The position numbers were made by a program, and so were the translations under genes. From a virus (Duplodnaviria; Heunggongvirae; Uroviricota; Caudoviricetes), in IMG/VR virus record IMGVR_UViG_3300031787_000054: a stretch of 64,000 nucleotides of DNA, one strand, 5' to 3'. The notes under the pieces were generated by a model, which did not search any database, was not told the DNA's origin, and was given only the letters and a program-made list of their open reading frames with translations. This document shows positions 10,441-45,607 of the stretch, one piece after another (within the stretch, counting starts at the first letter, position 1; every line of letters begins with the position of its first letter).

Positions 10441-10444
10441 CTAT

Positions 10445-10480
10445 TATACTATATCATACTTTTATGATTTTGTCAAGAAC
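10445..10480 (-). promoter_or_regulatory. conserved sigma70-like promoter (AGTTCTTGACAAA-N17-TATAGT)
   Basis: -35 TTGACA at 10476-10471. -10 TATAGT at 10453-10448. Confidence 0.6.
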
Positions 10481-10483
10481 TTT

Positions 10484-11175: not shown

Positions 11176-11185
11176 TTTAAACTCC

Positions 11186-12281: not shown

Positions 12282-12288
12282 ACCCCTC

Positions 12289-13095
12289 CTATTTGTTTTT
12301 AATTTTATTGTAAGAATCCATTGCTCTTTTTACTAACTTAGACTTATCGAATTTAGATAAAGTATCAACAAACAATTCTTCCGTCGCTAATACGTCTAAT
12401 CTATTATATTTATCCATACTATTAAATGCTCTAATGTTGCCATTCATACACTCTCTATGTAAAGCAAATCCGCTGAATTCTGGGTGATTAGATTTAAAAT
12501 ATTTTTTATTAAATCTTTGACTCATATACTCTAAACTATAACTTGGTAATTTCATATGACGTTTAGCTATTACTTTAGTATCTAGTTTACCAAAAGAGTT
12601 TAATTCTGGAAGCCTATGAACTCCTATTCTAAAATTAATAACCTTAATATCAAAAGAATTTGAATTTTGTCCCAAAACTATATCAGCTTCATTGATTAGT
12701 TTCAATAACTTTTTAACTAATGTTTTATCATTCATCAATGCTTTACCTTTCTTATTTCTCTGATCAGCATATAATACTTCATCAGACCCTAACCATTTGG
12801 CTGACCAAGATAGAATAAAGGAATCTTCAATCATTTGATTGATACTAAAGTTCTGATCATAAAGACCAAATCCATATAATGACATTGGTGCTGTCTCAAT
12901 ATCAAATACTAGAACCTTTGGTGTGTATTCTGGAACTTCTGAACAATGATTGTCAATACAGTGTTTAATAGAGTCAACTGAACGATACGACCCAAATCTT
13001 TCACGATAAGCCTTAGCTATGCTAAATCTAGTCATACCTTTTTCTAAACATCTTTGTACGAAATTAATTTGTACTTTTTTCCATTCTTCTTTCAT
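12289..13095 (-). CDS. DEDD-type 3'-5' exonuclease
   Basis: Exo I-like FDIETAP and Exo II-like GQNSNSFD motifs. Confidence 0.5.
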   Translation of the reverse strand: MKEEWKKVQINFVQRCLEKGMTRFSIAKAYRERFGSYRSVDSIKHCIDNHCSEVPEYTPKVLVFDIETAPMSLYGFGLYDQNFSINQMIEDSFILSWSAKWLGSDEVLYADQRNKKGKALMNDKTLVKKLLKLINEADIVLGQNSNSFDIKVINFRIGVHRLPELNSFGKLDTKVIAKRHMKLPSYSLEYMSQRFNKKYFKSNHPEFSGFALHRECMNGNIRAFNSMDKYNRLDVLATEELFVDTLSKFDKSKLVKRAMDSYNKIKNK

Positions 13096-19433: not shown

Positions 19434-20417
19434 TTATATCTCCTCTTTAATAACTTTTCTATATATATCTAAAATAATATGGTTTATTTCTATACTATCT
19501 GGTAAATTTGAATGTTGTTTAATTTCAAGTAGTTCTTTTAATCCTTTTTCTATTTCAGGTTGAACTATTGTTGTGAAATCTAATTCTCCTTTTTTAACCA
19601 ATAATATAAAGTCTCTTTGTTCTTTTTCTAACGGAAAAGCTAAAGAACCTGTTGTCAATAATACCTTTCCTTGGTGTATAACACGTAAGGCATGACTGAC
19701 AGCTTTCCAATCTACGCCTTGGTTCATTTTAGCTAATTTACTTCTTGTACCAAATTCATCGTACGCTTTTTGTAAAGAATTGATAACGTAATCAATCGTT
19801 GAAAACATTGGATACTTTTTACCAATAACTTCAAAATGTTCGTCATATCCTTCATTTAAATCATTTTTAACTTTAGGAACTTGAACAATATGAACATATT
19901 CTAATTTAGTTAGTTCTAATAATTGATTTCTAAAATTAAATAACTTATTAGAATAAGGATAAGTTTCTTTATAATTCTTTAAAGTTTCAAGTACCTTCTC
20001 TACTGAACCCATTCTAGTCCCACGAATACCGTATTTAGCTGCTTGTTGTTTAGCATATCCAATAAAACTAACTACATTCTTATGTACTAATTCATTTCTT
20101 TTTGAAACAATCTCATCCCATAGTGGGTGTTTCTCTAGAATAAATTCATCGGGAGTAAACAATAATTCGATTGCTACTGTTTGTCCTTCTTTTAGCATGT
20201 TCATAAACTTATCTAATGAAAATAATTCAGTGTCTATATCAGAGCTGTTATTTTTATTATTTGAATTATTAGTACTTTGATTAATACTTTTATTAAATTT
20301 ACCTAGTAATATGTCGTCAGCAGATGGTAAGTACACGCCTTTATAATCTTTGTCTGATTTCTCGGTATTTAGTCCAAATAAATGTGACCCAGCTATAGCT
20401 TTCATTATTATTTTCAT
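19434..20417 (-). CDS. Pol-beta-superfamily nucleotidyltransferase-fold protein
   Basis: N-terminal GS-x11-DxD (AGSHLFGLNTEKSDKD) plus a downstream acidic DTE, typical of the minimal NTase fold. Interrupted by an Asn/Ser-rich low-complexity insert. Confidence 0.5.
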   Translation of the reverse strand: MKIIMKAIAGSHLFGLNTEKSDKDYKGVYLPSADDILLGKFNKSINQSTNNSNNKNNSSDIDTELFSLDKFMNMLKEGQTVAIELLFTPDEFILEKHPLWDEIVSKRNELVHKNVVSFIGYAKQQAAKYGIRGTRMGSVEKVLETLKNYKETYPYSNKLFNFRNQLLELTKLEYVHIVQVPKVKNDLNEGYDEHFEVIGKKYPMFSTIDYVINSLQKAYDEFGTRSKLAKMNQGVDWKAVSHALRVIHQGKVLLTTGSLAFPLEKEQRDFILLVKKGELDFTTIVQPEIEKGLKELLEIKQHSNLPDSIEINHIILDIYRKVIKEEI

Positions 20418-25620: not shown

Positions 25621-26832
25621 TTAATGAAAGTCTGAGTTATCTTTATCTAAGTATGCTTCTGAAATCCATTTTAATGACTTCCTGTTGTTTGGACAGAACT
25701 TATCATTGTATGATTCAATAGATTTAATAACTACACCTTCTCTGATTTTTTGTTCTGGACAATATACTGAATCACCTTTAGTTAATTCATATACTTTTTC
25801 TTTATTAAAAGGACCTTCGTATAATACTGGAACAACATCAAATCCTCTTTCTTCTGCATACTGACGAACTTCTTTAGGACTTAACCATACGTGTTCACTG
25901 TTATCTAATGTTTTTTTAACATCAAATAAAACAAAATGATGTCTGTCTTTAAATCCATAATCGTAATTCTTTTGGATTCCTTGACCAATTAGCTCACCAT
26001 AAATAGTTTCACCTTCTTTAATCTTATCTTTAGCCTTAACACCTTTTAAAACATTACCATATACATCTTCACCATAGAAACCAGAGTATCCGACTCTGTT
26101 AGTAAGTTCTACGTTATTAGACCCATAACAGAACTCGTATTTAGGTAATAGACCTAGCTTTCCAGAAACGATTCTTTTTAGCATATTTAAGCTCGAAAGA
26201 AGAATGGTCTTAGTATCTCCTTTCCTTGTTTTAAGTTGATTTAAGCACCCAAAGAATTCGTTTAAAGACGGAATTACTGTTGGTAACATAGATGCTCTAC
26301 AGTTACTTCCATGCAATTTTTCCTCAACTACAACTAACTCTCCTTCAGTGAATAGGTTTGGAAACCATTTTACGTTTTCTAGTCCGTTATATTTATGAAA
26401 TAATGGGTTCTCTAGTGGTTTGTTTCTAGATGTTTTAAGTCTAGGAGTAAACTCAGGAGCAGGTGGTTCGTATTTAATAATACCTAACGATTCAGATAAA
26501 TCATCCTCTAGTGAAAACTTAGATACATCAGTAAATTCTGATATTTCTTCTTTAGATATCAGCATACCCTGAGAAGCAAATCCTCTAATACGAATTTGTC
26601 TAACTCTTGAATTATGTAGCTTGATCTTACTTCCTTCTGGAAATAATTTAGATTCTAAGTTATTAGGTAATACTGAATCAATTGGAACGTAGATAATCTC
26701 ATCTCCCACAACGTATTTGTTTTTTGGAATTACCACATGAAATCCATATACGATTGCAATTTCTAATCGTTCAGCGTTTGAGTGAGGATATATCTCTAAT
26801 ATTTGAGTCAGTGGTGTTTTAAATAATGACAT
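25621..26832 (-). CDS. ATP-dependent RNA ligase (Rnl2/Rnl5-like nucleotidyltransferase with N-terminal extension)
   Basis: Motif I lysine in EEKLHGSN at about residue 172, resembling the KxHGxN of the Rnl2 family. About 160 aa of OB-like sequence precede it, as in Deinococcus/Naegleria-type Rnl5. Confidence 0.65.
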   Translation of the reverse strand: MSLFKTPLTQILEIYPHSNAERLEIAIVYGFHVVIPKNKYVVGDEIIYVPIDSVLPNNLESKLFPEGSKIKLHNSRVRQIRIRGFASQGMLISKEEISEFTDVSKFSLEDDLSESLGIIKYEPPAPEFTPRLKTSRNKPLENPLFHKYNGLENVKWFPNLFTEGELVVVEEKLHGSNCRASMLPTVIPSLNEFFGCLNQLKTRKGDTKTILLSSLNMLKRIVSGKLGLLPKYEFCYGSNNVELTNRVGYSGFYGEDVYGNVLKGVKAKDKIKEGETIYGELIGQGIQKNYDYGFKDRHHFVLFDVKKTLDNSEHVWLSPKEVRQYAEERGFDVVPVLYEGPFNKEKVYELTKGDSVYCPEQKIREGVVIKSIESYNDKFCPNNRKSLKWISEAYLDKDNSDFH

Positions 26833-26978: not shown

Positions 26979-27439
26979 TATTTCACGTAAATTAAAATTT
27001 CACTATCACCTGTTACTTTATTGATTATTTCTTCAATCTTAGTCCAATCTCCTCCACCTAATCCACTGCCAATTTTAGGCATAGCTACAATCTTACCTTT
27101 ATCCAAGTACTTTCTTTTAATTTCATTCATACATTGTTCAATAGCATCATAGTCGATATATTGTTTTCCATCATATCCGTATTTATCCTGTGTGAAACAG
27201 TTTAGTATTGTTAGTTTATCGGAAACTTTAACAGGTTGAACCATGCCTAGTAATAAGCCTGTTCCAAAGTTCAACAATTTGTAATGTTCACATAATCCGT
27301 GATAGTTTTCCTTCACAACGGGGTATTTTTCTAACATTGTTTTAGCTACACCTGAGCCAAACTTACTCTGACAGTTTACACCATGAGCGATTACTCCCTC
27401 TGTTACATCAAATAAATCACCTTGTACGTATTTAATCAT
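26978..27439 (-). CDS. macro-domain protein (ADP-ribose binding/hydrolase)
   Basis: GDLF...GVIAHGVNC...GSGVA... and GGGDW fit the macro / Appr-1''-p processing fold. Confidence 0.65.
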   Translation of the reverse strand: MIKYVQGDLFDVTEGVIAHGVNCQSKFGSGVAKTMLEKYPVVKENYHGLCEHYKLLNFGTGLLLGMVQPVKVSDKLTILNCFTQDKYGYDGKQYIDYDAIEQCMNEIKRKYLDKGKIVAMPKIGSGLGGGDWTKIEEIINKVTGDSEILIYVK

Positions 27440-28308
27440 TAGAAATCTCCTTTGGCTACTTGTAGTACTTTCAATCCTTTACTTCTTAACATGTCTACTA
27501 CCTGTTGTCTATCATCTAGAGCAAAGAATATATTATACTTAGGTAGTATTTCGTATTCTAATAAAACTTCTTTAGTGATATTGTCTTGTCTAAAGTCTCC
27601 ACTGTATCGCATAAATAATTCATCATAAGGTATATCATGTTTGTTTAACCATTCTTCTGTTTGTTTTCTGTAATCGTCTGGACGACCTGAACACAATACT
27701 ATTTTCATTCCTGTTTCTTTGTATGTTCTAAGTATATGAATTATTTCCATTATAGGTTTATCTTCTGGCATTGTACTAAAGAATAGTTTCCAATCTTTCT
27801 TTCCTTCTCCACGAACAAAGTTTAATCTATGGCTTAAATCCGCGATAGTACCATCAATATCGCAATATATTGCTTGTTCTTTATCTTTAAGTAATCCCTT
27901 TTCAGTAATGATTATGTCAGCTTCTTCTGAACTAATAGGTTGAAACTTAGACAGGAAAGTATCAAGTGCAGACCTTGCTTCTTTATAACAGGTAATAGTT
28001 GGGTGATTTGTTCTTTGTTCCATTCTTCTTAGACATTCTTTTGTTTGAACAATAAAAGAAAAGATAGCTGTTTCATAACCGTGTTCCTTTGCAACAGAAA
28101 GGTATCTATTTCGTTGTTCTTTACTAAAGTTCATACGATCTACAACAATCTTCTGTCCTGCTTCTATTGCGTCTTTAAACGCTTTTAAATGCCCATCTTT
28201 ACCTTGATCGTCTTGAGATATACGAACATATCCTGTTAACTCCAACTTAGAAGCAAATGTTGACTTACCAGAACCAGGAGGACCAACTAATACAATACAA
28301 TGTTTCAT
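27439..28308 (-). CDS. polynucleotide 5'-kinase / 3'-phosphatase
   Basis: N-terminal P-loop VLVGPPGSGKST. C-terminal HAD phosphatase motif YCDIDGTIAD. Layout matches T4 Pnk. Confidence 0.85.
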   Translation of the reverse strand: MKHCIVLVGPPGSGKSTFASKLELTGYVRISQDDQGKDGHLKAFKDAIEAGQKIVVDRMNFSKEQRNRYLSVAKEHGYETAIFSFIVQTKECLRRMEQRTNHPTITCYKEARSALDTFLSKFQPISSEEADIIITEKGLLKDKEQAIYCDIDGTIADLSHRLNFVRGEGKKDWKLFFSTMPEDKPIMEIIHILRTYKETGMKIVLCSGRPDDYRKQTEEWLNKHDIPYDELFMRYSGDFRQDNITKEVLLEYEILPKYNIFFALDDRQQVVDMLRSKGLKVLQVAKGDF

Positions 28309-30661: not shown

Positions 30662-32284
30662 TTATATACCACATACTCCACCAACACACTGAACTTCGTT
30701 TTCTTCAAACACCATTCCTTCGTTGGCTAGTGCTTCTTCTAGTGAAACTCTAGTAAGGGGTTGACCTCCTCGGCATCCATCTGGATAACAAGTAAATCCT
30801 CTTAGTCTTTTTGCATATTTCAATAATGTATTTGAATTCTTATCTAATGAACTTTCATTATTGTCGTCTGTTCCCCATGAAGACATATTACATGTTGAAC
30901 TGATAGACATATCAACGTAGTTCTGAATGTCAGCTTGAAACTTAACACGTTGTCTAAACGAAAGATCGTATGAATCTTTTATGTTCTCAATTTTAACTCC
31001 ACGTTCAAGAAGTCTTTTAACTGAACCATCGACAACGTATTGAAATAACCATTTACCTTCTTTAAAGTATCTGCGTTTATATGCTTTACAAAATAAAGGT
31101 TCAATTCCTGTTGTTGTTTCAGCAAGTATCCCTATTGTTCCAGTTGGTGCAATCGCTCTGACACCTTTAGGCACAGACACTCCTAATTCTTTAGCAAACG
31201 TGTATGCTGTATCATTTGATTGTTCTTCATATATAGCTAACCATTTATGTAACTCTGGAGTGCATACGTAGTCTTCGCCACGCATCATTAACCACTCATG
31301 AATACCACCTAAACCTAATCCAATTCTGTTGTTTTTTAATCCAACTTCTTTTATTTTATCATTAGGTACATCGGAATATATTCCTCCACAAATTAAAAAC
31401 TTTGTTGACATTTCAATATCTTTTCTTAATTGCTTAGTGTCTTTTATTCTGTTTAACCAAATAGTGCCCAGGTTACATTTATCTGAATCGTCTTCACTCA
31501 CTACTTCACAACAAGCGTTGCGTAGTGACTCGTTATCTTTTCTAAAGTTAAAGCTAAATCCTGGTTCTGCTGTACTAAATGCTTGTGAACAATTTCTTCT
31601 CCATACTTCTTTAGCGTGTAAATATAATGGGTGTTCTTTGTTTTCAATTGCCATGAAAAATTCAGTGTCATATATAACTGATATGTTTGTTAACTCCATG
31701 TCTAATTTGAAATTAAAATCTTGTTCTTTTAGTTTCTTTAAATCTTCTGTGTGATTTTTTAAATCAAGAAATTTAAATATGTCAGCATGTTTCCAATTTA
31801 ATCCTGCCCAAATAGCTGAACGACGCTGACCTCCTTGCATTATATTTCTTCCAGCTTCATTGACCATTCGCATTAAAGCAATAGGACCTGTACTAAATCC
31901 TCCTGTTCTTTTTACTAAAGCACCTTCATGTCTCAAAGCTGAATAATCAACACCGATTCCTCCACCAGTCATTAGTGCTGAAGTAATTCGATACATTAAC
32001 TCAGCCCATTCTTCACGAGAATCACCTGCTCTAAATAAAAAACAATTATTAACCTGATGGAATGGTCTACCTGCTGAATATAAATATCTACCACCAGGAA
32101 TAAATCTTCTATCTTCAATCATGTTTACAATATATTTTTTATCTTCAGGAGAGAGTCTTTGACCACAAACTGCTTCAACTATTCTGTTTGACATGTCAGA
32201 CCAGTTCTCTTGACCATTCATTGAATACTTTTGAATAAAAACATCTTGACTAAACTTATTTGAAAATACATCGTACTTTGACAT
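30662..32284 (-). CDS. ribonucleotide reductase (large, monomeric; class II-like)
   Basis: RNR signature GGGIGVDYSALRHEGALVKRTGGFSTGPIALMRMVNEAGRNIMQGGQRRSAIW. NxCxE-like NACCE. C-terminal Cys pair CVGGVC. Confidence 0.75.
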   Translation of the reverse strand: MSKYDVFSNKFSQDVFIQKYSMNGQENWSDMSNRIVEAVCGQRLSPEDKKYIVNMIEDRRFIPGGRYLYSAGRPFHQVNNCFLFRAGDSREEWAELMYRITSALMTGGGIGVDYSALRHEGALVKRTGGFSTGPIALMRMVNEAGRNIMQGGQRRSAIWAGLNWKHADIFKFLDLKNHTEDLKKLKEQDFNFKLDMELTNISVIYDTEFFMAIENKEHPLYLHAKEVWRRNCSQAFSTAEPGFSFNFRKDNESLRNACCEVVSEDDSDKCNLGTIWLNRIKDTKQLRKDIEMSTKFLICGGIYSDVPNDKIKEVGLKNNRIGLGLGGIHEWLMMRGEDYVCTPELHKWLAIYEEQSNDTAYTFAKELGVSVPKGVRAIAPTGTIGILAETTTGIEPLFCKAYKRRYFKEGKWLFQYVVDGSVKRLLERGVKIENIKDSYDLSFRQRVKFQADIQNYVDMSISSTCNMSSWGTDDNNESSLDKNSNTLLKYAKRLRGFTCYPDGCRGGQPLTRVSLEEALANEGMVFEENEVQCVGGVCGI

Positions 32285-32354
32285 TAGTTAAACCTTTATT
32301 AATAGAGGAGGAAGTGAATTCTTCCTCCTTAGACTAATATAGTTGTTTACGAAA

Positions 32355-33839
32355 TTATGAAGCAGATAATCTTTTTCGAATATCATTTAAAGATTCTTCA
32401 ATTAAAAAGTTACCATTTTCAAAAACTGTTTTCAATAAATTCTCTTTAGAGATATTAGAACTTGTATCATCGGAATATTCTAATACACCAGAATTATTTT
32501 TGAATACTGTCACTTTACCTAACGCTGAATTTTTTGTACCGTCGTCTGTCTTAGGTGCTTTGAATATTGCTTTCTCTGTTCCATTAATTGTAACAGATGT
32601 TGCTTTCATTGCAAAACCTAAAGTGTCTCTTGTGATAAATTGATATGTGTATGAACCGATTCCTAGTACAACATTAGTAGAAGCGAATCCTTTTTGTTTT
32701 AATCTCTCACAAATTTCTTTACATCTTTCAAGTGTAATCGAGTCACCGTAAATAGCTCCGATTTTAGGATTAAGTATTTTGTATCCTTGTGATGATACTG
32801 TTCCACCGAATGTTTCATATAATAATTCAATAACACCTTTGTTCTCAGGTGAACCTAGAGGAGCTTCAGGGTCTCCACATAGAATGTCAGCAGGGTCTCC
32901 ACTATCAGGACGAACCACTACTTTATCTAATGAACCTGCTCCACCATCACGAGCTAGAATTGATTCTTTTAATGAAGGTAAAATGTTTGTTACAACATTA
33001 AATAAATCCCAAGTATCTGACACAATACTAACAATACCTGTTGGATATAGTTCTTCAATGAATCTTCTATATGTTTCTCGTTCGTCTTCATATCCTCCTG
33101 CACACATTACTGAATGTTCGCTTGCTGGAACTGAACAACCAACTAATTCTTTAGTAACATCTGCATTGTAGTATTGTTCTGCATAATTAATTGCGGGTAA
33201 TGTATCTGTTCCAACGAATGATAGTAGGTGTCCAACACCAGATCGTGCTGAGTCTTCAGGTCCACTCTGTCCTCTCATAGAGAAATCGTGTCCTTGAAAT
33301 TCAACGCCAGCAGTAGAGCCTGTTGTCTCCAGTGCGTAATTATCTAATACTGAGCGGTAAGCTTTAGCAATACTTGCTGTTGTCGCTGGTTTCCATAGTA
33401 GTGATGAAAGAATAGTTTCAAGATAATTTGTTAACCAAAAGAATTCATCTTTAGTATTCTCGATTGTCATTACTGGAACTCGAAATGGTACTAACGTTCC
33501 TTCAGCTAATGCTGTTACTTTTAACGGTAAATAACCTAAATCATGTAAGTCTTCTAAGTGTTTTGTTTCAACATTTGGATTAAATAAATAAGCAGATACT
33601 TGACGCTTGTATTCATTAATAATTTCTTCTTTCTGTTTACTAAAGAACTGTGAATTAAATAATTCGTTTAATTCTTTTAATGCACCTTGTGTTCCAAAAG
33701 CTACAACGTTCTCAATTCCGTTGGCATGTTTACCTGAACGTGGTGTCCATGTACTGTATACCTTTGATGTGTTCTTTGGATACTGTACTCTATGACTAAG
33801 CTTGTAACCGTCACATGCTAATGTTGCAATTAAATTCAT
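32355..33839 (-). CDS. nadV: nicotinamide phosphoribosyltransferase family protein (NadV/Nampt-like)
   Basis: 494 aa. N-terminal LACDGYKLSHRVQYP and overall Nampt-like organisation. Confidence 0.8.
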   Translation of the reverse strand: MNLIATLACDGYKLSHRVQYPKNTSKVYSTWTPRSGKHANGIENVVAFGTQGALKELNELFNSQFFSKQKEEIINEYKRQVSAYLFNPNVETKHLEDLHDLGYLPLKVTALAEGTLVPFRVPVMTIENTKDEFFWLTNYLETILSSLLWKPATTASIAKAYRSVLDNYALETTGSTAGVEFQGHDFSMRGQSGPEDSARSGVGHLLSFVGTDTLPAINYAEQYYNADVTKELVGCSVPASEHSVMCAGGYEDERETYRRFIEELYPTGIVSIVSDTWDLFNVVTNILPSLKESILARDGGAGSLDKVVVRPDSGDPADILCGDPEAPLGSPENKGVIELLYETFGGTVSSQGYKILNPKIGAIYGDSITLERCKEICERLKQKGFASTNVVLGIGSYTYQFITRDTLGFAMKATSVTINGTEKAIFKAPKTDDGTKNSALGKVTVFKNNSGVLEYSDDTSSNISKENLLKTVFENGNFLIEESLNDIRKRLSAS

Positions 33840-34060
33840 TATTTATCTCCTTTGGTAAAATCTTTACCTGTTAATTTCTTTGACGCTTTACTAAAAAACG
33901 GAATACCAAATGCAACAATAGCACATATTATATGTACTGTAATACCTATTACTCTAAATTCTTCATGAGTCATAGGAGTTAGTATCAATAGTAGACCAAA
34001 GAAAAACAAACTACTAGCTATTGTTATTCCTAATTTTAGTTCTCTTTTAACTTCTTTCAT
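33839..34060 (-). CDS. small membrane protein
   Basis: 73 aa, two TM helices. Start overlaps the nadV stop. Confidence 0.4.
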   Translation of the reverse strand: MKEVKRELKLGITIASSLFFFGLLLILTPMTHEEFRVIGITVHIICAIVAFGIPFFSKASKKLTGKDFTKGDK

Positions 34061-34212
34061 TTTTCTCTTTTATTAATCTATTAAATCCTTTAAATAAAAG
34101 ATACAATAAAGATACTATCCCTAGTATCGGGAGTTCGTTTGATTTATGGCTTAACATAAAAGGTAAGATAAAACCAAAGTACGCTCCTAAAAATAAAATT
34201 ATAATAAATAGT

Positions 34213-34422
34213 TTATTCATTATGTTTACTCCAATGTTTTATATTATCTAAATACAATTTATAGTTTTGATTTAGTTCATAGACTATACCATTGTGTTTA
34301 TTACTTAATGATAATTTAACTTTAATATATCTATTGTTTACATCACGATAAGTTACTCTATGTATATGTACAAATAAGTCGCTCTTTTCGTTTGTATATG
34401 TTCCAGGATATATCATAATCAC
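34213..34422 (-). CDS. hypothetical protein
   Basis: 69-aa ORF. Confidence 0.3.
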   Translation of the reverse strand: MIMIYPGTYTNEKSDLFVHIHRVTYRDVNNRYIKVKLSLSNKHNGIVYELNQNYKLYLDNIKHWSKHNE

Positions 34423-34487
34423 CTTTTGTTAGATGACGATAGCTCGTCAACCCGACAACTCCTAGATGGTATGTCGCACCATATTAA

Positions 34488-35342
34488 TTACTTAATGTTA
34501 ATAAAGGGAATAGCGTTACTTCCTGTCATAGTTGGAAGTCTTCCGTCCCAACGTTGGATAGCTTCGTACTGGATTAATTCAGATGTTAGTGTTTTTAATT
34601 TTAAAGCATTAGACTTTGCCTCTGCTTCAGCTATTGCTAACATTGATTTAGCTTTACCTTCAGCTTCTGCAATTTGTTTTTTAGCTTGTGCTTCAGCTTC
34701 TCTTAGTTCGTTCTCTCTTTGTTGTGCTCTTTGTGTTGCTTCAATCTTAGAGTTAAGAGCAGATACAACGTTGTCTGGTAATCTAATAGAACCAATTAAA
34801 TATACTTTCTCAATAATAATACCATGCGGTTTTAAACTCTCTCTAACTAATCCTTCAACCTTTAGAAATAAGTCTGTCTTACCAGAACCATAAACAGATT
34901 CAACAGTCATTGTAGATGCTACAGTATTTAGTGCATCTCTTAAAGCGTTCTTTACTACAACAGCTTTTATTTCATCAATACCTTTCCTATACTTTTGGAA
35001 TAGTTTGCTGATCTTAGAATCATCAACAGTGAATGTTACACCCATATCAATGTTACAAGATAGACCTTCTGACGTTTGAAAAGTAAAAGATTCATCTGTT
35101 TCAGAGTCTTCCATTTCGTCTCTCGTGTAGATTTTTGTTTGTTGGAAAGTAGGGAAGATGTATAGTTCCTCATTGATCCCAACCCAATATCTACCTACAC
35201 CTAGTACTTCGTGGTCAACACCCTTACTACCGCCTAGTAGGTAAATCTTAACACCAACATTACCTGCTGGAACTTTAGAACAAGACGTTGTGAATAACGT
35301 CAGTAACAATACAATAAAAAAACCCTTCAGAAAATTAATCAT
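34488..35342 (-). CDS. SPFH/band-7 (stomatin/prohibitin-like) membrane protein
   Basis: N-terminal TM, SPFH-like core, Ala/Glu-rich coiled-coil tail (EAEAQAKKQIAEAEGKAKSMLAIAEAEAK). Confidence 0.55.
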   Translation of the reverse strand: MINFLKGFFIVLLLTLFTTSCSKVPAGNVGVKIYLLGGSKGVDHEVLGVGRYWVGINEELYIFPTFQQTKIYTRDEMEDSETDESFTFQTSEGLSCNIDMGVTFTVDDSKISKLFQKYRKGIDEIKAVVVKNALRDALNTVASTMTVESVYGSGKTDLFLKVEGLVRESLKPHGIIIEKVYLIGSIRLPDNVVSALNSKIEATQRAQQRENELREAEAQAKKQIAEAEGKAKSMLAIAEAEAKSNALKLKTLTSELIQYEAIQRWDGRLPTMTGSNAIPFINIK

Positions 35343-36106
35343 TCAACTTCTCCTTTGAAATTAAATACTCGTTTAATGCCTTCTTCAAATAATACAAGAG
35401 AACCTCTAGAATAAATACCATGTGTTGTGTATAGATATACTTCGGAAGCTCCCATTTTATATAACTGTTTAGCACATTGAATAAAGGTAGCTCCTCCATC
35501 ACAAATGTCGTCCACTATTAAACACTTTTTATTTGTTATAGGATATAGTGAGTCGGCTTCTAATGAAAGAATCTTACCTGTTGATTGTTCTCTTACCTTG
35601 TTGAAATAAATACTAGGTATATTAGTTAATGAATTTAACTTACTATAACGAACACTAGCTCCTTTGTCTGGATAGATAAGTACATCTGTTCCAGTTAATA
35701 AAGTAACAGTTTGAATGTATTTGTAAGGTATTTCATTTATACAATTAGCTATACCATGTTTATCGGAATGAGCATCAATCAAATACACAGTACTAAAGTT
35801 AAGTGAATTAATCAAATGAGCAAATGGGTGAATACCGAATGTCGAATCATTACTTACCTCCTTATCCTGTCTTCCGTATGGAAGATAGTTAATACGTAGT
35901 GTTCCTAGTTTTTCTGAAACAGAGCCAATCATAAATCGTAATTGAGCGATTGTTATAAGCTCTGACTCTTTATCAAAGTCCCATTCAATTACGTTATTAA
36001 ACGTTATTTTCATTTTGTTATACACATCTTCTGGGAGTTTCCAGACTTGTGTACAAGTATCAGGGAATGTTGTTGGAGTTACGTTGTAACCGTTTAGTGT
36101 TATCAT
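35339..36106 (-). CDS. phosphoribosyl-diphosphate synthetase-like (Prs/PRTase-fold) protein
   Basis: PRPP-binding motif CLIVDDICDGGATF. Shorter (255 aa) than housekeeping Prs. Confidence 0.65.
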   Translation of the reverse strand: MITLNGYNVTPTTFPDTCTQVWKLPEDVYNKMKITFNNVIEWDFDKESELITIAQLRFMIGSVSEKLGTLRINYLPYGRQDKEVSNDSTFGIHPFAHLINSLNFSTVYLIDAHSDKHGIANCINEIPYKYIQTVTLLTGTDVLIYPDKGASVRYSKLNSLTNIPSIYFNKVREQSTGKILSLEADSLYPITNKKCLIVDDICDGGATFIQCAKQLYKMGASEVYLYTTHGIYSRGSLVLFEEGIKRVFNFKGEVE

Positions 36107-36114
36107 TTTACCTT

Positions 36115-36306
36115 TTATTCACAAGGAGCAATAAATTCTATTTTGTTAGATGGATAACTTGTACTATTATAATACAAAGTTAATTCTGTAAAACTGGCAT
36201 CAAATCCATATTTAATATGGTCTTCATTTATTTTGCTGATAAAGATACGATATATTTTTCCTGCATAATTAATTAAATTATAACTATTCTCCATAAGAAA
36301 CCTCAA
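36115..36306 (-). CDS. hypothetical protein
   Basis: 63-aa ORF. Confidence 0.3.
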   Translation of the reverse strand: MRFLMENSYNLINYAGKIYRIFISKINEDHIKYGFDASFTELTLYYNSTSYPSNKIEFIAPCE

Positions 36307-36535
36307 TACTATTAAATTGAGTTTGTGAAATGTTCACATTATCTTGTGCTGTCAAGTTCTGATTATTGAAAGCTTGTAGGTCTTCTAACGCTGTCTTAAG
36401 AGCTTCAATGGGTATAGCAACATTACCAGTTGGTGAACGAAAAATAACCATTGATGGATCTCCGTGCATCAATCTCACTTCACATTCTACTTCACGTTCG
36501 TTTGTTGGTAAATAAATAAGTAATTCTTTTCTCAT
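36284..36535 (-). CDS. hypothetical protein
   Basis: 83 aa. First gene after the promoter at 36547-36575. Confidence 0.35.
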   Translation of the reverse strand: MRKELLIYLPTNEREVECEVRLMHGDPSMVIFRSPTGNVAIPIEALKTALEDLQAFNNQNLTAQDNVNISQTQFNSIEVSYGE

Positions 36536-36543
36536 AATACTCC

Positions 36544-36579
36544 TTTAGTATATCACATATTGTTTAATTTGTCAAGTGT
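36544..36579 (-). promoter_or_regulatory. conserved promoter copy (-10 TATACT)
   Basis: TTGACA (36575-36570), 17-nt spacer, TATACT (36552-36547). Confidence 0.55.
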
Positions 36580-36646: not shown

Positions 36647-37051
36647 TTAAGGGCATACACTTTCTCCGATTAATGTTAAGTCTCTGTCAAAGAATATACG
36701 AGGATATATCTCATCGAATATATCACCTTGTCTTAATAGACAAACTTCATATTTAGTATCTTCTATTGTTCCAACGAATTCATCAAGACATGTTCCTTTT
36801 ATTTGAAAAACAAAACCAACGTATGGTGTGTTAGTGATCTCCATACCATCACTATTATAATCTTTTATAACTTGTACTATGTCTCCTGGTTTAAATTTTG
36901 TAGCCATTTTTATCTGTCTCCTTCTTACAAGATCGACACACATAAAACATATGTCCACCTGCTGTGTTACTAATAATATTAGGACTACCACAACAATGAT
37001 TCTTTGTTTCAATATATGATTCGTATTTAAAGAATGGAGGAGGTAAGTCAT
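36647..37051 (-). CDS. hypothetical protein (true start may be the internal Met near 36907)
   Basis: ORF overlaps the next gene by 160 nt unless it starts at MATKFKPGDIV. Confidence 0.3.
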   Translation of the reverse strand: MTYLLHSLNTNHILKQRIIVVVVLILLVTQQVDICFMCVDLVRRRQIKMATKFKPGDIVQVIKDYNSDGMEITNTPYVGFVFQIKGTCLDEFVGTIEDTKYEVCLLRQGDIFDEIYPRIFFDRDLTLIGESVCP

Positions 37052-37257: not shown

Positions 37258-37830
37258 TTACCTCCTTAGTTCATATTCAAATCTTAGTTTTCTTTTTTGT
37301 TTTAGTAATTTAGCAACACCATTCTTGATAAGTTCTTGCAACTTAAGTGCTGTCTTTGTGTACTGATTATCTTTCTTAGCGTATAACTGTCTTAAGTGTA
37401 TCTTCTTTCCATTAAGCTCAACAACTCTTGGATTGCTGTTATTCTCTTCACCAACATACTTAAAGTTACTAGCTTTATATATTGTTCCTATGTGTCCAAC
37501 GTTGGGGTCTGTATATGAAAGAATAATAGGTGGGCAGTCTTTATTCTTTAATATGTTTAATGTCTTTGCTAAGAAGAATGATTCAGTATTCTTTTCTGTG
37601 TTATCAATTAAACAAAATCTTCTTAGTTCAATATACTTATCGCTATCTATATTCTTACCCATTGGTTTACCATATAAAGCAACACCTATTAGGTTATTAT
37701 TTAGGTCACGTAAAGTAAATATAAACTTCTGTTGTAGTGATCTATATGATTTTGAATAGTGCCATGTGATAATGAAGTCCATAATTTCTTTAGTTAATGT
37801 TTCTTCTTTTACAATGTATTTAGACTTCAT
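37258..37830 (-). CDS. hypothetical protein
   Basis: 190-aa ORF. Confidence 0.4.
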   Translation of the reverse strand: MKSKYIVKEETLTKEIMDFIITWHYSKSYRSLQQKFIFTLRDLNNNLIGVALYGKPMGKNIDSDKYIELRRFCLIDNTEKNTESFFLAKTLNILKNKDCPPIILSYTDPNVGHIGTIYKASNFKYVGEENNSNPRVVELNGKKIHLRQLYAKKDNQYTKTALKLQELIKNGVAKLLKQKRKLRFEYELRR

Positions 37831-38057
37831 ATTAAAACTGCTTCCTTTTGTCTAATAATAAAGTGATCTCTATCTCCTCCTTTTGTACTTTTTGCTAGAA
37901 AACGAACACGTACGTCTCTTTCTTTAAAGGGAACGTTAGTACATACGACAACACAGATGTCACCAACAAAATATAAACCAGCACAACCTTCTTCTTCATC
38001 GTCTTGCAAATTTGGATTAACGTTCTGTATCTGTAAAACATCTCCTATTTTAAACAT
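37827..38057 (-). CDS. small beta-rich protein (KIGDV family)
   Basis: 76 aa. N-terminal MFKIGDVLQIQ, shared with several other small ORFs. Confidence 0.35.
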   Translation of the reverse strand: MFKIGDVLQIQNVNPNLQDDEEEGCAGLYFVGDICVVVCTNVPFKERDVRVRFLAKSTKGGDRDHFIIRQKEAVLI

Positions 38058-38629: not shown

Positions 38630-38862
38630 TCTCCTACTTCATAAAGGAAATCTTTATAAAATGAAGTACCATCTATCATCTCTTGTCTGGTTACTTGTAT
38701 ATAAGAATCATTAAATGATTTAAATTCAACGTCACCGTCGGAGTGAATATCTTTAAGTAAACAATATAAAATAATGTAAGTACTGTTTGTATTATACATG
38801 TAACACATGTAACAGTAAAATTTATCTTCTCTTATGTCTTTAATGTTTGTTATTCTTTTCAT
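38620..38862 (-). CDS. hypothetical protein
   Basis: 80-aa ORF. Confidence 0.35.
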   Translation of the reverse strand: MKRITNIKDIREDKFYCYMCYMYNTNSTYIILYCLLKDIHSDGDVEFKSFNDSYIQVTRQEMIDGTSFYKDFLYEVGECL

Positions 38863-39059
38863 ACTACCTCACCCACTTTATTTAACATTATATCTTTGAA
38901 ATCACCAAATGATCTATCTGATTTAATATCTGTACCAATATAATAATAAGATATATAGCTTCCCACTATGGATTCAATTAATACTAAAGCTAATTGAAAC
39001 TTATCTCTTAGAGCATCTGTTTCGCTCATTTGTACAATATCTCCAACTTTAATATTCAT
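38859..39059 (-). CDS. small beta-rich protein (KVGDI family)
   Basis: 66 aa. MNIKVGDIVQM N-terminus. Confidence 0.35.
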   Translation of the reverse strand: MNIKVGDIVQMSETDALRDKFQLALVLIESIVGSYISYYYIGTDIKSDRSFGDFKDIMLNKVGEVV

Positions 39060-40317: not shown

Positions 40318-40532
40318 TATTCAGTAGTTTGTGTTACTCTCTTAACTCTTAATGTATGTGTATCAGGATTTGCAATAACTATTAACACATCACCTAACTT
40401 AAATCTGTTATAAATACTAAGTACTGATCTTTCATTATTAAACTCTACTGTATCAAATGTATTATCTAGGTCATCATAATCCTTAACACACCTTTTCACT
40501 TGAACTATACTACCTTTTTTAAATGTTCTCAT
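40278..40532 (-). CDS. small beta-rich protein (KKGSIV family)
   Basis: 84-aa ORF. Confidence 0.35.
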   Translation of the reverse strand: MRTFKKGSIVQVKRCVKDYDDLDNTFDTVEFNNERSVLSIYNRFKLGDVLIVIANPDTHTLRVKRVTQTTEYWWVHPLEVDLIA

Positions 40533-41089
40533 ATTGTTACACCCTTCATAATTTTTTGTACATTTCTCAACACCTTCTTATCGAAGTCACTACACAAATA
40601 CTCACATACATCAGTTAAATCTTGAATGATGTTATCCTCTAAGTATAATGTTGTATCTAGTATTGGGATATCCTTCAAGCTTCTTATGTCACGTTTAAGA
40701 AGAAAGAATAAGTCTGACCTCTTAGATTGATCTAAAACATTCCACAACAATACTAGACAACCAGCGTGTGCTAGTATCTCTTCGTGTAATATATCTACTC
40801 TATCTTGTACTTTATGTTTGATATTATAAAGAGATGGTCTATCTAATCTATCCTTGTGACCAGTTGAATGTATTAACTCGTGCATCAGTGTCACATAACC
40901 CCAATTCTTATTAGAAGAAAGCTTCTCGTTTATTACTATAATATCAAGTGGAATCATATACTTACCAAATGAATCTATCTTATCACTGTTAAATATCTTA
41001 GGGAAAACAAAGTCATCATAGTTTAATGAACCACCTATTAGTTTATCCAATGCGTGTAGTTGAATGTTCATTTGTTCTCCTTTGTTCAT
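40529..41089 (-). CDS. HExxH zinc-metallopeptidase-like protein
   Basis: LMHELIHSTGH motif. 186 aa. Overlaps the ATP-grasp gene by 47 nt (translational coupling). Confidence 0.5.
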   Translation of the reverse strand: MNKGEQMNIQLHALDKLIGGSLNYDDFVFPKIFNSDKIDSFGKYMIPLDIIVINEKLSSNKNWGYVTLMHELIHSTGHKDRLDRPSLYNIKHKVQDRVDILHEEILAHAGCLVLLWNVLDQSKRSDLFFLLKRDIRSLKDIPILDTTLYLEDNIIQDLTDVCEYLCSDFDKKVLRNVQKIMKGVTI

Positions 41090-41843
41090 TGATGTATTGT
41101 ATGATATTGTTAACCCATATATCTAAGTTAAGTGAGTTAAGTCCTGGACTAGAATTAACTTCAATAACATAGAACCGTTTCTTATCCCTATCAAATATAA
41201 TATCAACTCCACCGAATAATAAACCCAAACCTTGTACAGCTTTAATACACATTTGTTGTGCATTTAAATTACATGTTGATATCTCTGGATTACATTTTCT
41301 GAATTGACAGTTATGTGATTTATATATCTTAACACTAGAATCATTAGGTATCTTCTCATACACACCTAGAATCTTACCATTGAATACATGTACTCTATAC
41401 TCTTTCTTATTAACAATAGGTCTTGTAATATATAAATCAGTATCTCTTATTGTGTTGTCATATCTAACAACCATATCTCTACCACGTACATAGAAATATC
41501 CGTTAGTATCTTTGTATCTGTTAATATCAAATGTTGATCTATCACCTTCAATTAAATCAAAGTATTTAGGTGTTCTAACTCCTTCGATCTGTTTTAGATT
41601 CTTAATCATATCGTGTTTGTTAGATGCTTTACGCACAGCTTGTTTATCATTAAGTGTTAATGTCTGGTTGCTGTCATTGGTTCTACTCTCGCCCCATCTA
41701 ACGAATACATTGCTATGTTTAGGAGTCATGTATTCTCTAACCCTGCGTACTTTCCTAAAGGCTCTTGAATTTTTTAATTTAAGATACAATAACTTACCTG
41801 TCTTACATGATTTATTTGAGTAAGAAAAGTTTAATGTTGTCAT
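41043..41843 (-). CDS. ATP-grasp family ligase (RimK/GshB-like)
   Basis: C-terminal ATP-grasp signature EYRVHVFNGKILGV ... GLLFGGVDIIFDRDKKRFYVIEVNSSPGL. Confidence 0.6.
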   Translation of the reverse strand: MTTLNFSYSNKSCKTGKLLYLKLKNSRAFRKVRRVREYMTPKHSNVFVRWGESRTNDSNQTLTLNDKQAVRKASNKHDMIKNLKQIEGVRTPKYFDLIEGDRSTFDINRYKDTNGYFYVRGRDMVVRYDNTIRDTDLYITRPIVNKKEYRVHVFNGKILGVYEKIPNDSSVKIYKSHNCQFRKCNPEISTCNLNAQQMCIKAVQGLGLLFGGVDIIFDRDKKRFYVIEVNSSPGLNSLNLDIWVNNIIQYINEQRRTNEHSTTRIG

Positions 41844-43033: not shown

Positions 43034-44107
43034 TTAAGCATAAGAAACACTGTCGTCATTGTTATAAGCATCATACAATAGCTTAAGTTTAGTATCGTAA
43101 TCCATACTGTTTAATACATCTTGTTCATCTTTAGATAAGGTTAAACAATATTGCAACAAAACAGATGACATAGCACTCACTACTGTCATGTCGATCTCAC
43201 TAGCTTTAGATGTCGAAGACGTTGACGATTCCTCTCTTCCGTTCGAGTAAAGCCAGTTCGAACACGAGCTTGATTGTTGACTGGCAAACCTTCTTGAAGA
43301 AGAATATGATTGACGATGAACAAATGTTCTATTAATATCTGTAACACTAATAGGTTCACCTGTGATAGCATCAACTCTCAATAGTTTATTATCGAATAAA
43401 GGGAAGCATAATGGCTTCTTCCATTTCAATTTCTCACAAGTATTCTTAATGATATCATCACTTGTACAAATAATAAAGCCACCGATCTCTTCAACTTGAG
43501 CAATAAAAAGTGGAGCATTGTATTTAAACACATCAAGAATTCTTCTACCATCTGATTGTTTACTAAGAGTAGCAACACCCCAATAACCCTCTAGAGCATC
43601 AGTTGTTTCCTGAATCTTACTTGAGTTATTAGCAACATCATTCTTTAGGTACTCATTCAAGATTGTTTCAGAATCACACGTTGAAATAATATTAGTTAAC
43701 TTATGTGAGTTATTGATAACTCCATTATGAATCAATGCTGTGTCATCAATAATAAAAGGGTGAACATTCTGAAATGTTCTAGCACAAGTAGCCCATCTTG
43801 TATGGAATATAATTGATTTAACATTCTCGAAATTAATATTTCCTGTAGATGAATACTCTGTTTCATCAAGAGCTGTAGGAACTTTATCTTTAATGACACC
43901 CTGATACTTAGCTAACTCAGTCAGTGGTTTTAAGAAAGCTTTAGACACATCAAGAAATCTTTCAGAAAACATATTCCCGTCACCATCAATAGCCGCATAA
44001 CCTAATCCGTGATTATCAGATTTAGTCATGTCAGCTTTAGATGCGAACATAAATTGTTTTGCTTTCAAACCATTTTGAATACCAAACATCACCATTACTT
44101 TACACAT
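43034..44107 (-). CDS. class-II (Ntn) glutamine amidotransferase domain protein
   Basis: Cys at position 2 (MCKV...) as the Ntn nucleophile. HTRWATCARTFQNVHPF...ALIHNGVINN resembles GATase-2 / AsnB N-terminal motifs. Confidence 0.6.
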   Translation of the reverse strand: MCKVMVMFGIQNGLKAKQFMFASKADMTKSDNHGLGYAAIDGDGNMFSERFLDVSKAFLKPLTELAKYQGVIKDKVPTALDETEYSSTGNINFENVKSIIFHTRWATCARTFQNVHPFIIDDTALIHNGVINNSHKLTNIISTCDSETILNEYLKNDVANNSSKIQETTDALEGYWGVATLSKQSDGRRILDVFKYNAPLFIAQVEEIGGFIICTSDDIIKNTCEKLKWKKPLCFPLFDNKLLRVDAITGEPISVTDINRTFVHRQSYSSSRRFASQQSSSCSNWLYSNGREESSTSSTSKASEIDMTVVSAMSSVLLQYCLTLSKDEQDVLNSMDYDTKLKLLYDAYNNDDSVSYA

Positions 44108-44116
44108 ACTTACTCC

Positions 44117-45607
44117 TTATGCAAATTTTAAAATACGGTTATTAATATAATCTAAAGATTGACTTGGGATACCTTCGATATAATTAGGAATCGTTTCAAC
44201 TTTTCTAGGAGAAGATTCTAATTTAGAAGTAGCATTAACAATAGGTAAAATAAAGTTAATCCAATTTAACATATCATCAGTATCTACTGTGCCCTCATGA
44301 ACTCTAATCTCTAATGTTTTATGTCGAGCATAAGACATAGGATTGATAACTAAGTATCTGTCAGATCGTCTACCTCCTGATGTCATGTTTGCTTTGTATT
44401 GATAGTCTTCAATGTTCGGTGACTCAGTTGGTCTACAATAAGTGTTTGATCTTCTTTGTTCTGGTTGTGACTCAACTAAAAACTTTTGAAGCTTAACTAG
44501 ATTATGAAATGCAATTGCTACATCTCTCTTTCTCATATCAAAATGAACATGCAATCCACAACTATTATTTACTGAACACTGTGCTTCTTGTAATGCAACA
44601 CCTAATCTATTTAGGATTTCGATACGATTGTTTTCTGGAACTAATACTCTGATTTCGTGAGTGAAAGGGTATCCATCTGAAGTTCTAAGTGAACCATCTG
44701 ATGTAACATTAGTCCATTTCTGTAACTTGTTTTTAATTAACACCTCTTTTAATTTACCAACGTCAGACTTAGAAATTAATTCAATCTCAATACCAATGAA
44801 TGAATCGTTGTTGTATGGTTTCTTTTCATCATTGATTAGATTCTTTTGAATGTGTTCATACATTTTTAAATACTGTCCATTAGTTTGAGCAACACCATTG
44901 TACAATTCAATAGCACCAAACCTAGTTTCTTTCTTTGTCGGACTAGACTTAACTGCTAATCTTTGTTCACGAAGTTTTTTATTAAGAGCTTGATGTGCTT
45001 TTAATTTAATAGCCTTCAAATCTTTCTTAACGATAGTCACACCATTCTGAACTACTTCAACAGTAGGCATTGGAATTTCTACTTCCAATAGTTTCTTCCC
45101 TACTGTACGTGATGCTCTAACTTTAAGTTCTTGATTCATTAACTTACTTAGCTTCTCACGATTCTCTTTAATCTTTTTAGATAAAGTATTTTCTTTATCA
45201 GTTTTACCTTTAACACCTAGTCGTTGTTGTTCCTTATCAAGAGCTTCTAACTTCTTAGTTTCTTTTAGTAAAGTGAAGAACATTGTGTTCTTATTTTCTT
45301 TAACACTAAATACTTTAATCTTTAAGTCTTTAGGAAATATAACTTTCTTGTATCTTTCAAATACTAAGTTATCTTTCAACACAATGAACTCTGTTCCTTC
45401 TTTAATTAATATCTTTTTACTATCTAACGTAAATGAAATATCTTCGTTCAATATACAACGAACATATTTATTGTTCTTATCAAACTCACCAATGTATTCA
45501 ATCTCTTTTCCAACAAAATAAGGTCCGAGTTTATTCTCTTTGTCCTTATTAATTTTGTAGATAGCACCTAACTCAAATACTTTTGTTTCCATATTACTTA
45601 CCTCCAA
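44117..45607 (-). CDS. glutamine-synthetase-like amidoligase (carboxylate-amine ligase fold) with N-terminal Lys-rich domain
   Basis: C-terminal half carries FIGIEIELIS, CGLHVHFD and LEIRVHEG. These resemble the GxExE / HxH / ExR signatures of the GCS2/YbdK/PafA-type amidoligases. Confidence 0.5.
   Translation of the reverse strand: MEVSNMETKVFELGAIYKINKDKENKLGPYFVGKEIEYIGEFDKNNKYVRCILNEDISFTLDSKKILIKEGTEFIVLKDNLVFERYKKVIFPKDLKIKVFSVKENKNTMFFTLLKETKKLEALDKEQQRLGVKGKTDKENTLSKKIKENREKLSKLMNQELKVRASRTVGKKLLEVEIPMPTVEVVQNGVTIVKKDLKAIKLKAHQALNKKLREQRLAVKSSPTKKETRFGAIELYNGVAQTNGQYLKMYEHIQKNLINDEKKPYNNDSFIGIEIELISKSDVGKLKEVLIKNKLQKWTNVTSDGSLRTSDGYPFTHEIRVLVPENNRIEILNRLGVALQEAQCSVNNSCGLHVHFDMRKRDVAIAFHNLVKLQKFLVESQPEQRRSNTYCRPTESPNIEDYQYKANMTSGGRRSDRYLVINPMSYARHKTLEIRVHEGTVDTDDMLNWINFILPIVNATSKLESSPRKVETIPNYIEGIPSQSLDYINNRILKFA

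Follow-up and report, generated by a model that had tools for sequence, protein, structure and literature searches.

NAD+ reconstitution pathway 1 (NARP1) consists of two enzymes, Adps and Namat, that are encoded in phage operons annotated as 'Prs + Nampt' (Osterman et al. 2024, 10.1101/2024.02.11.579819). From ADP-ribose (ADPR) plus ATP, Adps makes ADP-ribose pyrophosphate (ADPR-PP) and AMP, and Namat converts ADPR-PP and nicotinamide to NAD+ and pyrophosphate (PPi); NARP1 is defined by a member of an Adps clade distinct from Prs with a Namat within 10 genes, and it is present in about 4% of phages (10.1101/2024.02.11.579819). Structures of the NARP1 enzymes have been reported (PMC12774641 and PMC13586617). 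Here we describe a locus in a 64,000-nucleotide stretch of tailed phage DNA from IMG/VR record IMGVR_UViG_3300031787_000054 (this whole 64-kb stretch is called the window below), which encodes a 255-amino-acid Prs-like protein and a 494-amino-acid Nampt-like protein. We conclude, with a probability of roughly 0.87, that it is a NARP1 operon whose chemistry and counter-defense role are those predicted from the sequences of its genes. The pathway has already been described, and the window operon is a new and fairly divergent case from an uncultured metagenomic phage of ~84.5 kb.

The closest described systems are the NARP1 pairs of Bacillus phages SPbetaL1 and FADO, E. coli phage Bas63 and Vibrio phage ICP1. 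The window has the same two enzyme families in the same Adps-then-Namat order, and it resembles these systems in having the Namat clamp motif, intact catalytic residues and a truncated Prs-like protein, and in the clades to which the enzymes belong; identity to the validated enzymes is 29–35% for Adps and 48–57% for Namat. The SPbetaL1, FADO, ICP1 and GH15 pairs are adjacent or overlapping, whereas the window genes are 1.5 kb apart with a membrane module between them. Two extended forms of the pathway are known: NARP1-AP of Vibrio phage Gary, with the order Adps-Adpp-Namat, in which Adpp is a Macro-domain ADPR-1''-phosphate phosphatase (10.64898/2026.01.28.702374), and the NARP1 of mycobacteriophage DyoEdafos, which includes the RyR-domain glycosidase RyDEP (10.64898/2026.05.28.727677). 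Like these, the window has extra genes between or beside its core enzymes; however, the Gary and DyoEdafos inserts are soluble ADPR-processing enzymes that feed the pathway, whereas the window insert is a predicted SPFH lipoprotein with small membrane proteins. No Macro domain was found on the operon open reading frames (ORFs) or the window genes by a search that did find Macro domains at two other loci (L132 and L142), nor was an RyR domain found among the window genes. Two further pathways are NARP2, which pairs the KVP40 Nampt with Nmnat, and NARP3, a PnuC-like transporter with a NadR-like bifunctional enzyme (PMC13464706); the window's genes include neither of the NARP3 domains. Precomputed Pfam matches of the genes called across the 64-kb window (the contig, ERZ27247978 k141_842501, is ~84.5 kb long, and its other ~20 kb apparently holds structural genes) contain no Nmnat, NadR, Nudix, PnuC or Macro domain, and therefore NARP2, NARP3 and NARP1-AP are not supported.

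If the window enzymes act as NARP1 enzymes do, a bacterial SIR2-, TIR- or SEFIR-type effector would split NAD+ into ADPR and nicotinamide, Adps would form ADPR-PP by attaching the beta,gamma-pyrophosphate from ATP to the terminal ribose of ADPR, and Namat would exchange the pyrophosphate for nicotinamide. As NAD+ would thereby be rebuilt directly, the phage could replicate despite an NAD+-depleting defense such as type I Thoeris, DSR1/2, SIR2-HerA or SEFIR. A preliminary description of this DNA, made from the sequence alone, had proposed an NAD+ reconstitution pair here; the clades of both enzymes, the clamp motif, the catalytic residues, the C-terminal loss and the gene linkage all fit NARP1, and in the phylogenies that it had suggested neither enzyme falls in a housekeeping NadV or Prs clade.

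The 255-amino-acid protein has a Pfam Pribosyltran match and a sub-threshold Pribosyl_synth match, matches phrog_619 ('ribose-phosphate pyrophosphokinase') with 195 bits, and finds S. solfataricus Prs as its best match in a copy of the Protein Data Bank (PDB) that lacks the ICP1 Adps structure. It falls under every curated NCBIfam Prs cut-off, scoring 86 bits against the 113 required by TIGR01251 and lying far below the equivalog models. Compared with E. coli Prs it is truncated at both the N- and the C-terminus and ends ~45 residues earlier, full-length Prs being ~315 amino acids long. Since the sequence stops just past the catalytic core, the alpha11-alpha12 C-terminal module of Prs is absent; loss of this module was called an Adps-family signature by the ICP1 paper (PMC13586617). 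The published catalytic residues of Adps are K185 in ICP1 (K162 in SPbetaL1), H121, D161, D212 and D213 (PMC13586617). We mapped the window residues onto ICP1 Adps taken from the ICP1 genome record, whose numbering reproduces the published one exactly. The acceptor residues are present; F14, R79, H113, D147, the catalytic K170 (the equivalent of ICP1 K185 and SPbetaL1 K162), D199 and D200 are kept, and the states at I179, C202 and F208 are of the Adps rather than the Prs type. The PRPP-binding (PP) loop, previously described as intact, is indeed complete; from D199-D200 it reads DDICDGGATF, compared with DDICDGAASF in ICP1 Adps and DDMIDTGGTL in E. coli Prs (PRPP is phosphoribosyl pyrophosphate).

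In a neighbor-joining tree of 147 sequences, for which the E. coli genome and PDB alignments supplied the canonical Prs references, six canonical Prs enzymes (three bacterial class I and three archaeal class III) split from 141 Nampt-linked Prs-like proteins in 200/200 bootstraps. A clade of 63 metagenomic proteins of ~250 amino acids (166/200) includes the window protein and joins the SPbetaL1, FADO and Thrax3 Adps at 167/200. The earlier suggestion that a length of 255 amino acids fits an ADPR pyrophosphokinase better than a housekeeping Prs is thus consistent with the scores below the Prs cut-offs, the truncation and the split from Prs, and by these measures the protein is a predicted Adps and not a housekeeping Prs. 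With the window, a divergent NARP1 of an environmental phage that is uncultured joins the known cases, and it belongs to a large clade of ~250-amino-acid Adps-like proteins that has no characterized member.

The 494-amino-acid protein matches the Pfam families NAPRTase (137.8 bits) and NAMPT_N (33.9 bits) and carries the PHROG label nicotinamide phosphoribosyltransferase; it scores 590 bits with the SPbetaL1 Namat crystal chains 9W5X/9W5W versus 240 bits with human Nampt. Alignment with 148 relatives shows that every residue of the site for nicotinamide or nicotinamide mononucleotide (NMN) is kept (D10, Y12, F186, R189, D212, A239, R310 and D312), as is the phospho-histidine, H242. The published catalytic residues of Namat are F189, D215, R306 and the phospho-histidine (PMC12774641), and this set is intact in the window protein as F186, D212, R310 and H242. 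The published Namat selectivity-clamp helix (SCH) has the motif GSX-phi-X-phi-X-phi-TRD (PMC12774641), with which the window sequence G395-S-Y397-T-Y-Q-F401-I-T-R-D405 (GSYTYQFITRD) agrees, with positions 3 and 7 aromatic; the same stretch is GGGLLQQLDRD in the KVP40-like phage nt-1 and GGALLQKLTRD in mammalian Nampt, which have G/A and Q/K at the clamp positions. Changing the clamp to the human residues (F392G/Y396K, the equivalents of window clamp positions 3 and 7) lowered ADPR-PP-driven NAD+ synthesis about fourfold, and the SCL/SCH double mutant R40A/F392G showed a ~17-fold loss with NMN synthesis retained (PMC12774641). According to the published rule for the clamp loop (SCL), which supplies a stacking residue, the third residue is Arg, Lys or Tyr and, where it is Lys or Tyr, the next one stacks (PMC12774641); the window loop, P-R-S-G-K37-H38, resembles P-R-S-N-K-Y of the validated FADO enzyme and is compatible with this rule, His38 being a candidate for the stacking residue.

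The Namat tree, also neighbor-joining, has a 113-member clade (200/200) in which the window protein groups with the Namat of SPbetaL1, FADO and ICP1 and with Felix-like Namat; nt-1 and mammalian Nampt lie outside of it. Identity to the window protein in the phage collection is 36–57% in NARP1-type phages and ~30% in KVP40-like phages (nt-1 and VH7D). PDB entry 9ke8 was considered as a KVP40 Nampt and was not used as a reference; it corresponds to no deposited phage protein (its best phage match is SPbetaL1, at 58%), and no citing paper was found. From these comparisons the 494-amino-acid protein is a predicted Namat, and not a KVP40-like or mammalian Nampt. The published rules on the Namat clamp, Adps truncation and the PP loop tell NARP1 genes from canonical salvage genes in raw metagenomic sequence.

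With respect to linkage, Adps lies upstream of Namat on the same strand with four genes between them, within the 10 genes of the NARP1 definition. We also surveyed 80 relatives on viral contigs and, from a set of 185,579 species-representative genomes (bacterial genomes and metagenome-assembled genomes, MAGs), the top 80 matches. A Nampt-like gene is present in the stored flanks of 79 of the 80 viral loci, downstream and on the same strand, and of 72 of the 80 bacterial/MAG loci; the 80 best genome matches of the 255-amino-acid protein are themselves Prs-like genes and not housekeeping Prs. Pairs of Prs-like and Nampt-like genes are widespread in bacterial assemblies (L015-L094), among them those of Sphingobacterium, Flavobacterium, Pedobacter, Paenibacillus, Marinomonas, Pseudoalteromonas and Colwellia. 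Bacterial NARP1 has been noted before (PMC12774641), and some of the MAG contigs with such pairs may be mis-binned phage.

Several observations weigh against a NARP1 assignment. Two ICP1 ligand contacts are lost in the window Adps (F92 is V84 and F223 is Q210), as they are also in SPbetaL1 Adps; the validated Adps enzymes are only 29–35% identical to it at the nearest; the Phe at clamp position 7 of Namat is a minority state (5/146); the deep nodes within the Adps-like ingroup are not resolved; and both trees are neighbor-joining trees on Kimura distances with 200 bootstraps, not maximum likelihood trees. In addition, five of the 63 members of the window's Adps-like clade (L018, L127, L149, L158 and L182) are paired with a partner that has a Nampt-type motif (GGLLLQQHNRD-like). 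Clade alone therefore does not fix the choice of substrate and the partner motif is needed too, which in the window is of the Namat type; the five pairs may reflect different chemistry or partner swaps. They also speak for canonical salvage, in which the Prs-like protein would make PRPP, the Nampt-like protein would make NMN from it, and host NadR and PncC/NadD would convert this to NAD+. That is the reading suggested by the Pfam and PHROG names, and Namat enzymes do still make NMN from PRPP in vitro (10.1101/2024.02.11.579819; PMC12774641). We nonetheless regard it as very improbable: the Prs-like protein is under all of the curated Prs thresholds and stands apart from canonical Prs in 200/200 bootstraps, and its partner has the adenine-clamp aromatics that mutants show to be needed for full ADPR-PP use (PMC12774641). 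Moreover, SPbetaL1 Adps, which belongs to the sister group of the window clade, gave no product in a Prs-type assay, yet made ADPR-PP from ADPR and ATP, and Bas63 beat the defense even in a host without pncC and nadR (10.1101/2024.02.11.579819). A NARP2-type pathway, in which a KVP40-like Nampt would work with a phage NMN adenylyltransferase, deserves even less weight, and we give it almost none. The window does share with NARP2 a Nampt-superfamily enzyme and a presumed role in NAD+ restoration; however, no Nmnat, NadR or Nudix gene is called within the 64 kb, the enzyme is ~30% identical to the nt-1 and VH7D Nampt and outside their branch (200/200), and it carries the ADPR-PP clamp instead of the GGxLLQ motif. 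No phage in the study of Osterman et al. had both pathways (10.1101/2024.02.11.579819).

The putative NARP1 genes are transcribed from the minus strand in the order 255-amino-acid ORF, 284-amino-acid ORF, three small ORFs and 494-amino-acid ORF, followed by a class II-like ribonucleotide reductase (RNR) gene. The features of the locus are as follows, in order of transcription.

36547..36575, minus strand: candidate promoter in the gap before orf83, TTGACA and TATACT spaced by 17 nt, with TG ahead of the -10 hexamer (extended -10); 11/12 matches.
36284..36535, minus strand: orf83, a small ORF and the first gene past the candidate promoter; called as a gene on public contigs, no Pfam or PHROG match, 37% identity in the relative L009.
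36115..36294, minus strand: orf59, a small ORF immediately upstream of Adps; a called gene of 59 amino acids with no Pfam match.
35339..36106, minus strand: Adps-type Prs-like enzyme (predicted ADP-ribose pyrophosphokinase), 255 amino acids, from the thresholds, residue map and tree.
34488..35342, minus strand: predicted SPFH/Band-7 lipoprotein, 284 amino acids, from Pfam Band_7, phrog_200 and an N-terminal hydrophobic segment.
34213..34416, minus strand: orf67, a soluble 67-amino-acid ORF of this phage only; a called gene with no transmembrane (TM) segment, no tblastn match in L009 and no significant Pfam match.
34047..34220, minus strand: orf57, a mini-protein predicted from hydropathy to have two TM segments (1-24 and 30-46); 48% identity in L009.
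33839..34060, minus strand: orf73, a mini-protein likewise predicted from hydropathy to have two TM segments (8-31 and 34-60); 63% identity in L009.
32355..33839, minus strand: Namat (predicted nicotinamide ADPR-transferase), 494 amino acids, from the structure-chain match, clamp motif and tree.

The Nampt-family, SPFH and Prs-like ORFs named in the preliminary description are thus all present on the minus strand with the same end points. It had also placed small membrane proteins and a band-7/SPFH gene between the two enzymes, which holds for the SPFH gene and the two 2-TM proteins; the fourth intervening gene, orf67, is predicted to be soluble. The same block is found, identical, on eight public metagenomic contigs, the longest of 84.5 kb, and a diverged relative (L009) has the SPFH and Nampt-like proteins at 85% and 83% amino-acid identity, respectively, so that these are real genes and not chance ORFs. 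Megablast of the locus against a phage collection gave no match, and there is thus no close cultured relative there at the nucleotide level. The stop codon of Adps overlaps the start of the SPFH gene (ATGA) and that of orf73 overlaps the start of Namat (TAATG); orf67 and orf57, and orf57 and orf73, overlap as well. The promoter at 36547-36575 is a candidate only, since the total of promoter-like sites in the region is not above that of shuffled sequence. No terminator-like site with a T-tract was found downstream of Namat. A perfect 9-bp GC-rich hairpin, AGGAGGAAG-aattca-CTTCCTCCT, lacking a T-tract, lies at about 32306-32329 of the window on the minus strand, 26 nt past the Namat stop and ahead of the RNR start; it could be a processing element, an attenuation element or a weak terminator.

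The 284-amino-acid protein between the enzymes matches Pfam Band_7 (PF01145) with 83.5 bits against a cut-off of 23.6, and phrog_200 ('lipoprotein') with 261 bits. Its N-terminus has a hydrophobic, signal-peptide-like segment; in alignment, Cys21 falls on the canonical lipobox cysteine of relatives, L096 among them (TTSC|SKVPAGNVGV versus LGGC|SKVPAGNVGV). The protein is predicted to be lipid-anchored outside of the cytoplasm, away from NAD+. Its closest described relatives are the phrog_200 'prohibitin-like' SPFH lipoproteins of phages and prophages, such as those of Burkholderia phage phiE125 (gp43) and of Pseudomonas transposable phages, which are 45–55% identical to it, have the same N-terminal lipobox cysteine followed by SKVPAGNVGV, and adjoin a small multi-TM protein. 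In those phages, however, the SPFH gene is not beside NARP1 and the small TM gene is upstream of it, whereas in the window it is inside the NARP1 operon with the TM genes downstream. The SPFH-orf57-orf73 block is kept in L009, and orf67 is not. Phages with an RNR 68–79% identical to that of the window lack the whole Adps-to-Namat block upstream of it, and the block is thus an accessory insertion. The window's SPFH family is present in 519 phage records, many of them from temperate phages, and at eight viral loci a family member adjoins a small multi-TM gene in surroundings that lack NARP1. Such a distribution suggests an autonomous membrane module. The SPFH protein, the two 2-TM mini-proteins and the small soluble ORF most likely constitute a separate, envelope-acting accessory module that is co-transcribed with the enzymes and stands outside of the NAD+ chemistry.

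We had considered that an SPFH gene between the enzymes is limited to the window's lineage, as a mere passenger. This was revised when L142, an unrelated contig of 90 kb, turned out by Pfam to have a Band_7 gene between the two enzymes as well, in the order Adps-Macro-Band_7-Namat; at several further loci, too, Pfam confirms that a Band_7 gene lies beside NARP1. To measure SPFH proximity we used a detector based only on HflK, HflC, QmcA and YqiK of E. coli and on SPFH proteins of non-NARP1 loci; it replaced two earlier profiles, one biased by NARP1-linked training and the other too narrow (it missed Pfam-confirmed cases). An SPFH ORF lies within 7 kb in 12 of 80 NARP1-anchored viral loci, compared with 2 of 160 loci anchored on PNKP or DNA ligase and 1 of 34 anchored on RNR, controls that are thus anchored on other genes and not on random positions in the same genomes. 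Pooled, these values are 12/80 versus 3/194 (p=4e-5); after dereplication they are 10/67 versus 3/106 (odds ratio 6, p=0.006), and for contigs of at least 60 kb only they are 12/49 versus 0/38. The NARP1-linked SPFH proteins fall into at least four subfamilies with no more than 30% identity between them, and the SPFH genes of the viral loci are all on the NARP1 strand, within 1.3 kb in 7 of ~10 arrangements. Adjacency of SPFH to NARP1 is not universal. We found no mention of SPFH together with NARP1 in the searchable literature. Co-localization of SPFH and NARP1 is thus a statistically supported lead, not a conclusion, and any role of the SPFH protein alongside the enzymes is hypothetical.

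Separation of the two enzymes is not in itself unusual, since 50 of 162 NARP1-type loci have at least 300 nt between Adps and Namat (at least 1 kb in 19). The genes inserted elsewhere (in L022, L083, L090, L091, L092, L109, L129, L142 and others) are Tpt1/KptA (5), Macro (5), NADAR (4), metallophosphatase (4), ADP-ribosylglycohydrolase (3), DUF4291 (3), nucleoside 2-deoxyribosyltransferase-like (2), and PARG, RyR, Ro60/TROVE and adenylosuccinate synthetase (1 each). The inserts of other lineages thus belong mainly to ADPR/NAD chemistry, in line with the published Adpp and RyDEP accessories, and the embedded SPFH/TM module is the one feature that makes the window operon unusual; in the NARP1 literature surveyed, those other than Macro and RyR are not described as NARP1 accessories, and the census points to more ADPR-feeding accessories beyond the two published. 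At L011 an inorganic pyrophosphatase gene (L011:6139-6549) lies just upstream of an adjoining Adps-Namat pair, a position that may be meaningful because Namat releases PPi. A NADAR gene (L012:5458-5931) lies upstream of the Adps-Namat pair at L012.

These results bear on whether the window is an extended NARP1 in which the enzymes have working partners, and not passengers, in the SPFH lipoprotein and both 2-TM mini-proteins. Possible roles would be guarding the envelope or proton-motive force, setting lysis timing during NAD+ loss and rebuilding, or countering membrane-acting effectors of the same defenses. In favor, translation of the SPFH gene is coupled at its start to that of Adps (ATGA), L009 retains the SPFH-orf57-orf73 block, and the second, unrelated lineage (L142) also has Band_7 between the enzymes; enrichment relative to controls (10/67 versus 3/106 dereplicated, p=0.006) involves at least four SPFH subfamilies, mostly within 1.3 kb, and functional inserts in NARP1 operons have been published (Adpp, 10.64898/2026.01.28.702374; RyDEP, 10.64898/2026.05.28.727677). 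However, the other Adps-Namat inserts are mostly ADPR- or NAD-processing enzymes, unlike SPFH, and the window SPFH is predicted to be anchored away from the NAD+ pool. Members of this SPFH family are present in 519 phage records, many temperate, and at eight viral loci without NARP1; the Vibrio phage Gary/Brizo/Chloris group has an SPFH gene of the L142 type ~30 kb from NARP1, and in Kayvirus GH15 the 20 kb upstream of NARP1 hold no SPFH gene. Other genes, and not random positions in the same genomes, served as anchors for the controls, and accessory genes tend to cluster in any case. We therefore consider a working partnership unlikely, and we are similarly doubtful that SPFH/Band-7 is a recurrent companion of phage NARP1 in which NAD+ rebuilding is paired with an envelope-acting SPFH module. 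If a partnership did exist, the window would be a third kind of extended NARP1, after the Macro phosphatase and RyDEP extensions, and a functional co-localization would tie metabolic counter-defense to the cell envelope.

The two predicted NARP1 enzymes of this lineage have different histories. Between the window and L009 the SPFH protein, Namat, RNR and orf264 are 80–85% identical, whereas Adps and three upstream ORFs are only 31–50% identical. This sharp step in identity makes a mosaic boundary at the Adps/SPFH junction (window 35339-36535 versus 30662-35342; L009:5580-7726 versus 7719-13049), and the difference reflects either allele replacement or much faster evolution of Adps. L009 also encodes, ~2 kb upstream of its NARP1, a 72-amino-acid Tad2-like protein (L009:4800-5018) of an anti-Thoeris sponge family (PF11195, 26.3 bits versus a cut-off of 25), of which no homolog is detectable in the window. 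Presence of the Tad2-like gene in L009 but not in the window suggests a counter-defense island with variable content.

Elsewhere the window has a probable DNA base-modification set (37258-37830, 40529-41843, 43034-45607 and 11186-12281), which includes Mom-like, RimK/ATP-grasp, GATase_6-like and Amidoligase_2 genes and a 180-amino-acid ORF with a faint MPTase-PolyVal match, plus dNMP kinase and dUTPase/DCD-like genes. It also has an RNA-repair set (25621-26832, 27439-28308 and 19434-20417) with an RNA ligase, a PNKP-type kinase/phosphatase and a RlaP-like protein; RNA-repair toolkits of the RNA ligase and PNKP kind serve against tRNA-cleaving defenses. Upstream of the operon, three small ORFs with no Pfam match (37827-38057, 38859-39059 and 36647-36907) open with M-x-x-K-x-GD-I/V-L/V-Q as judged by eye, which suggests that they are a family of small paralogs.

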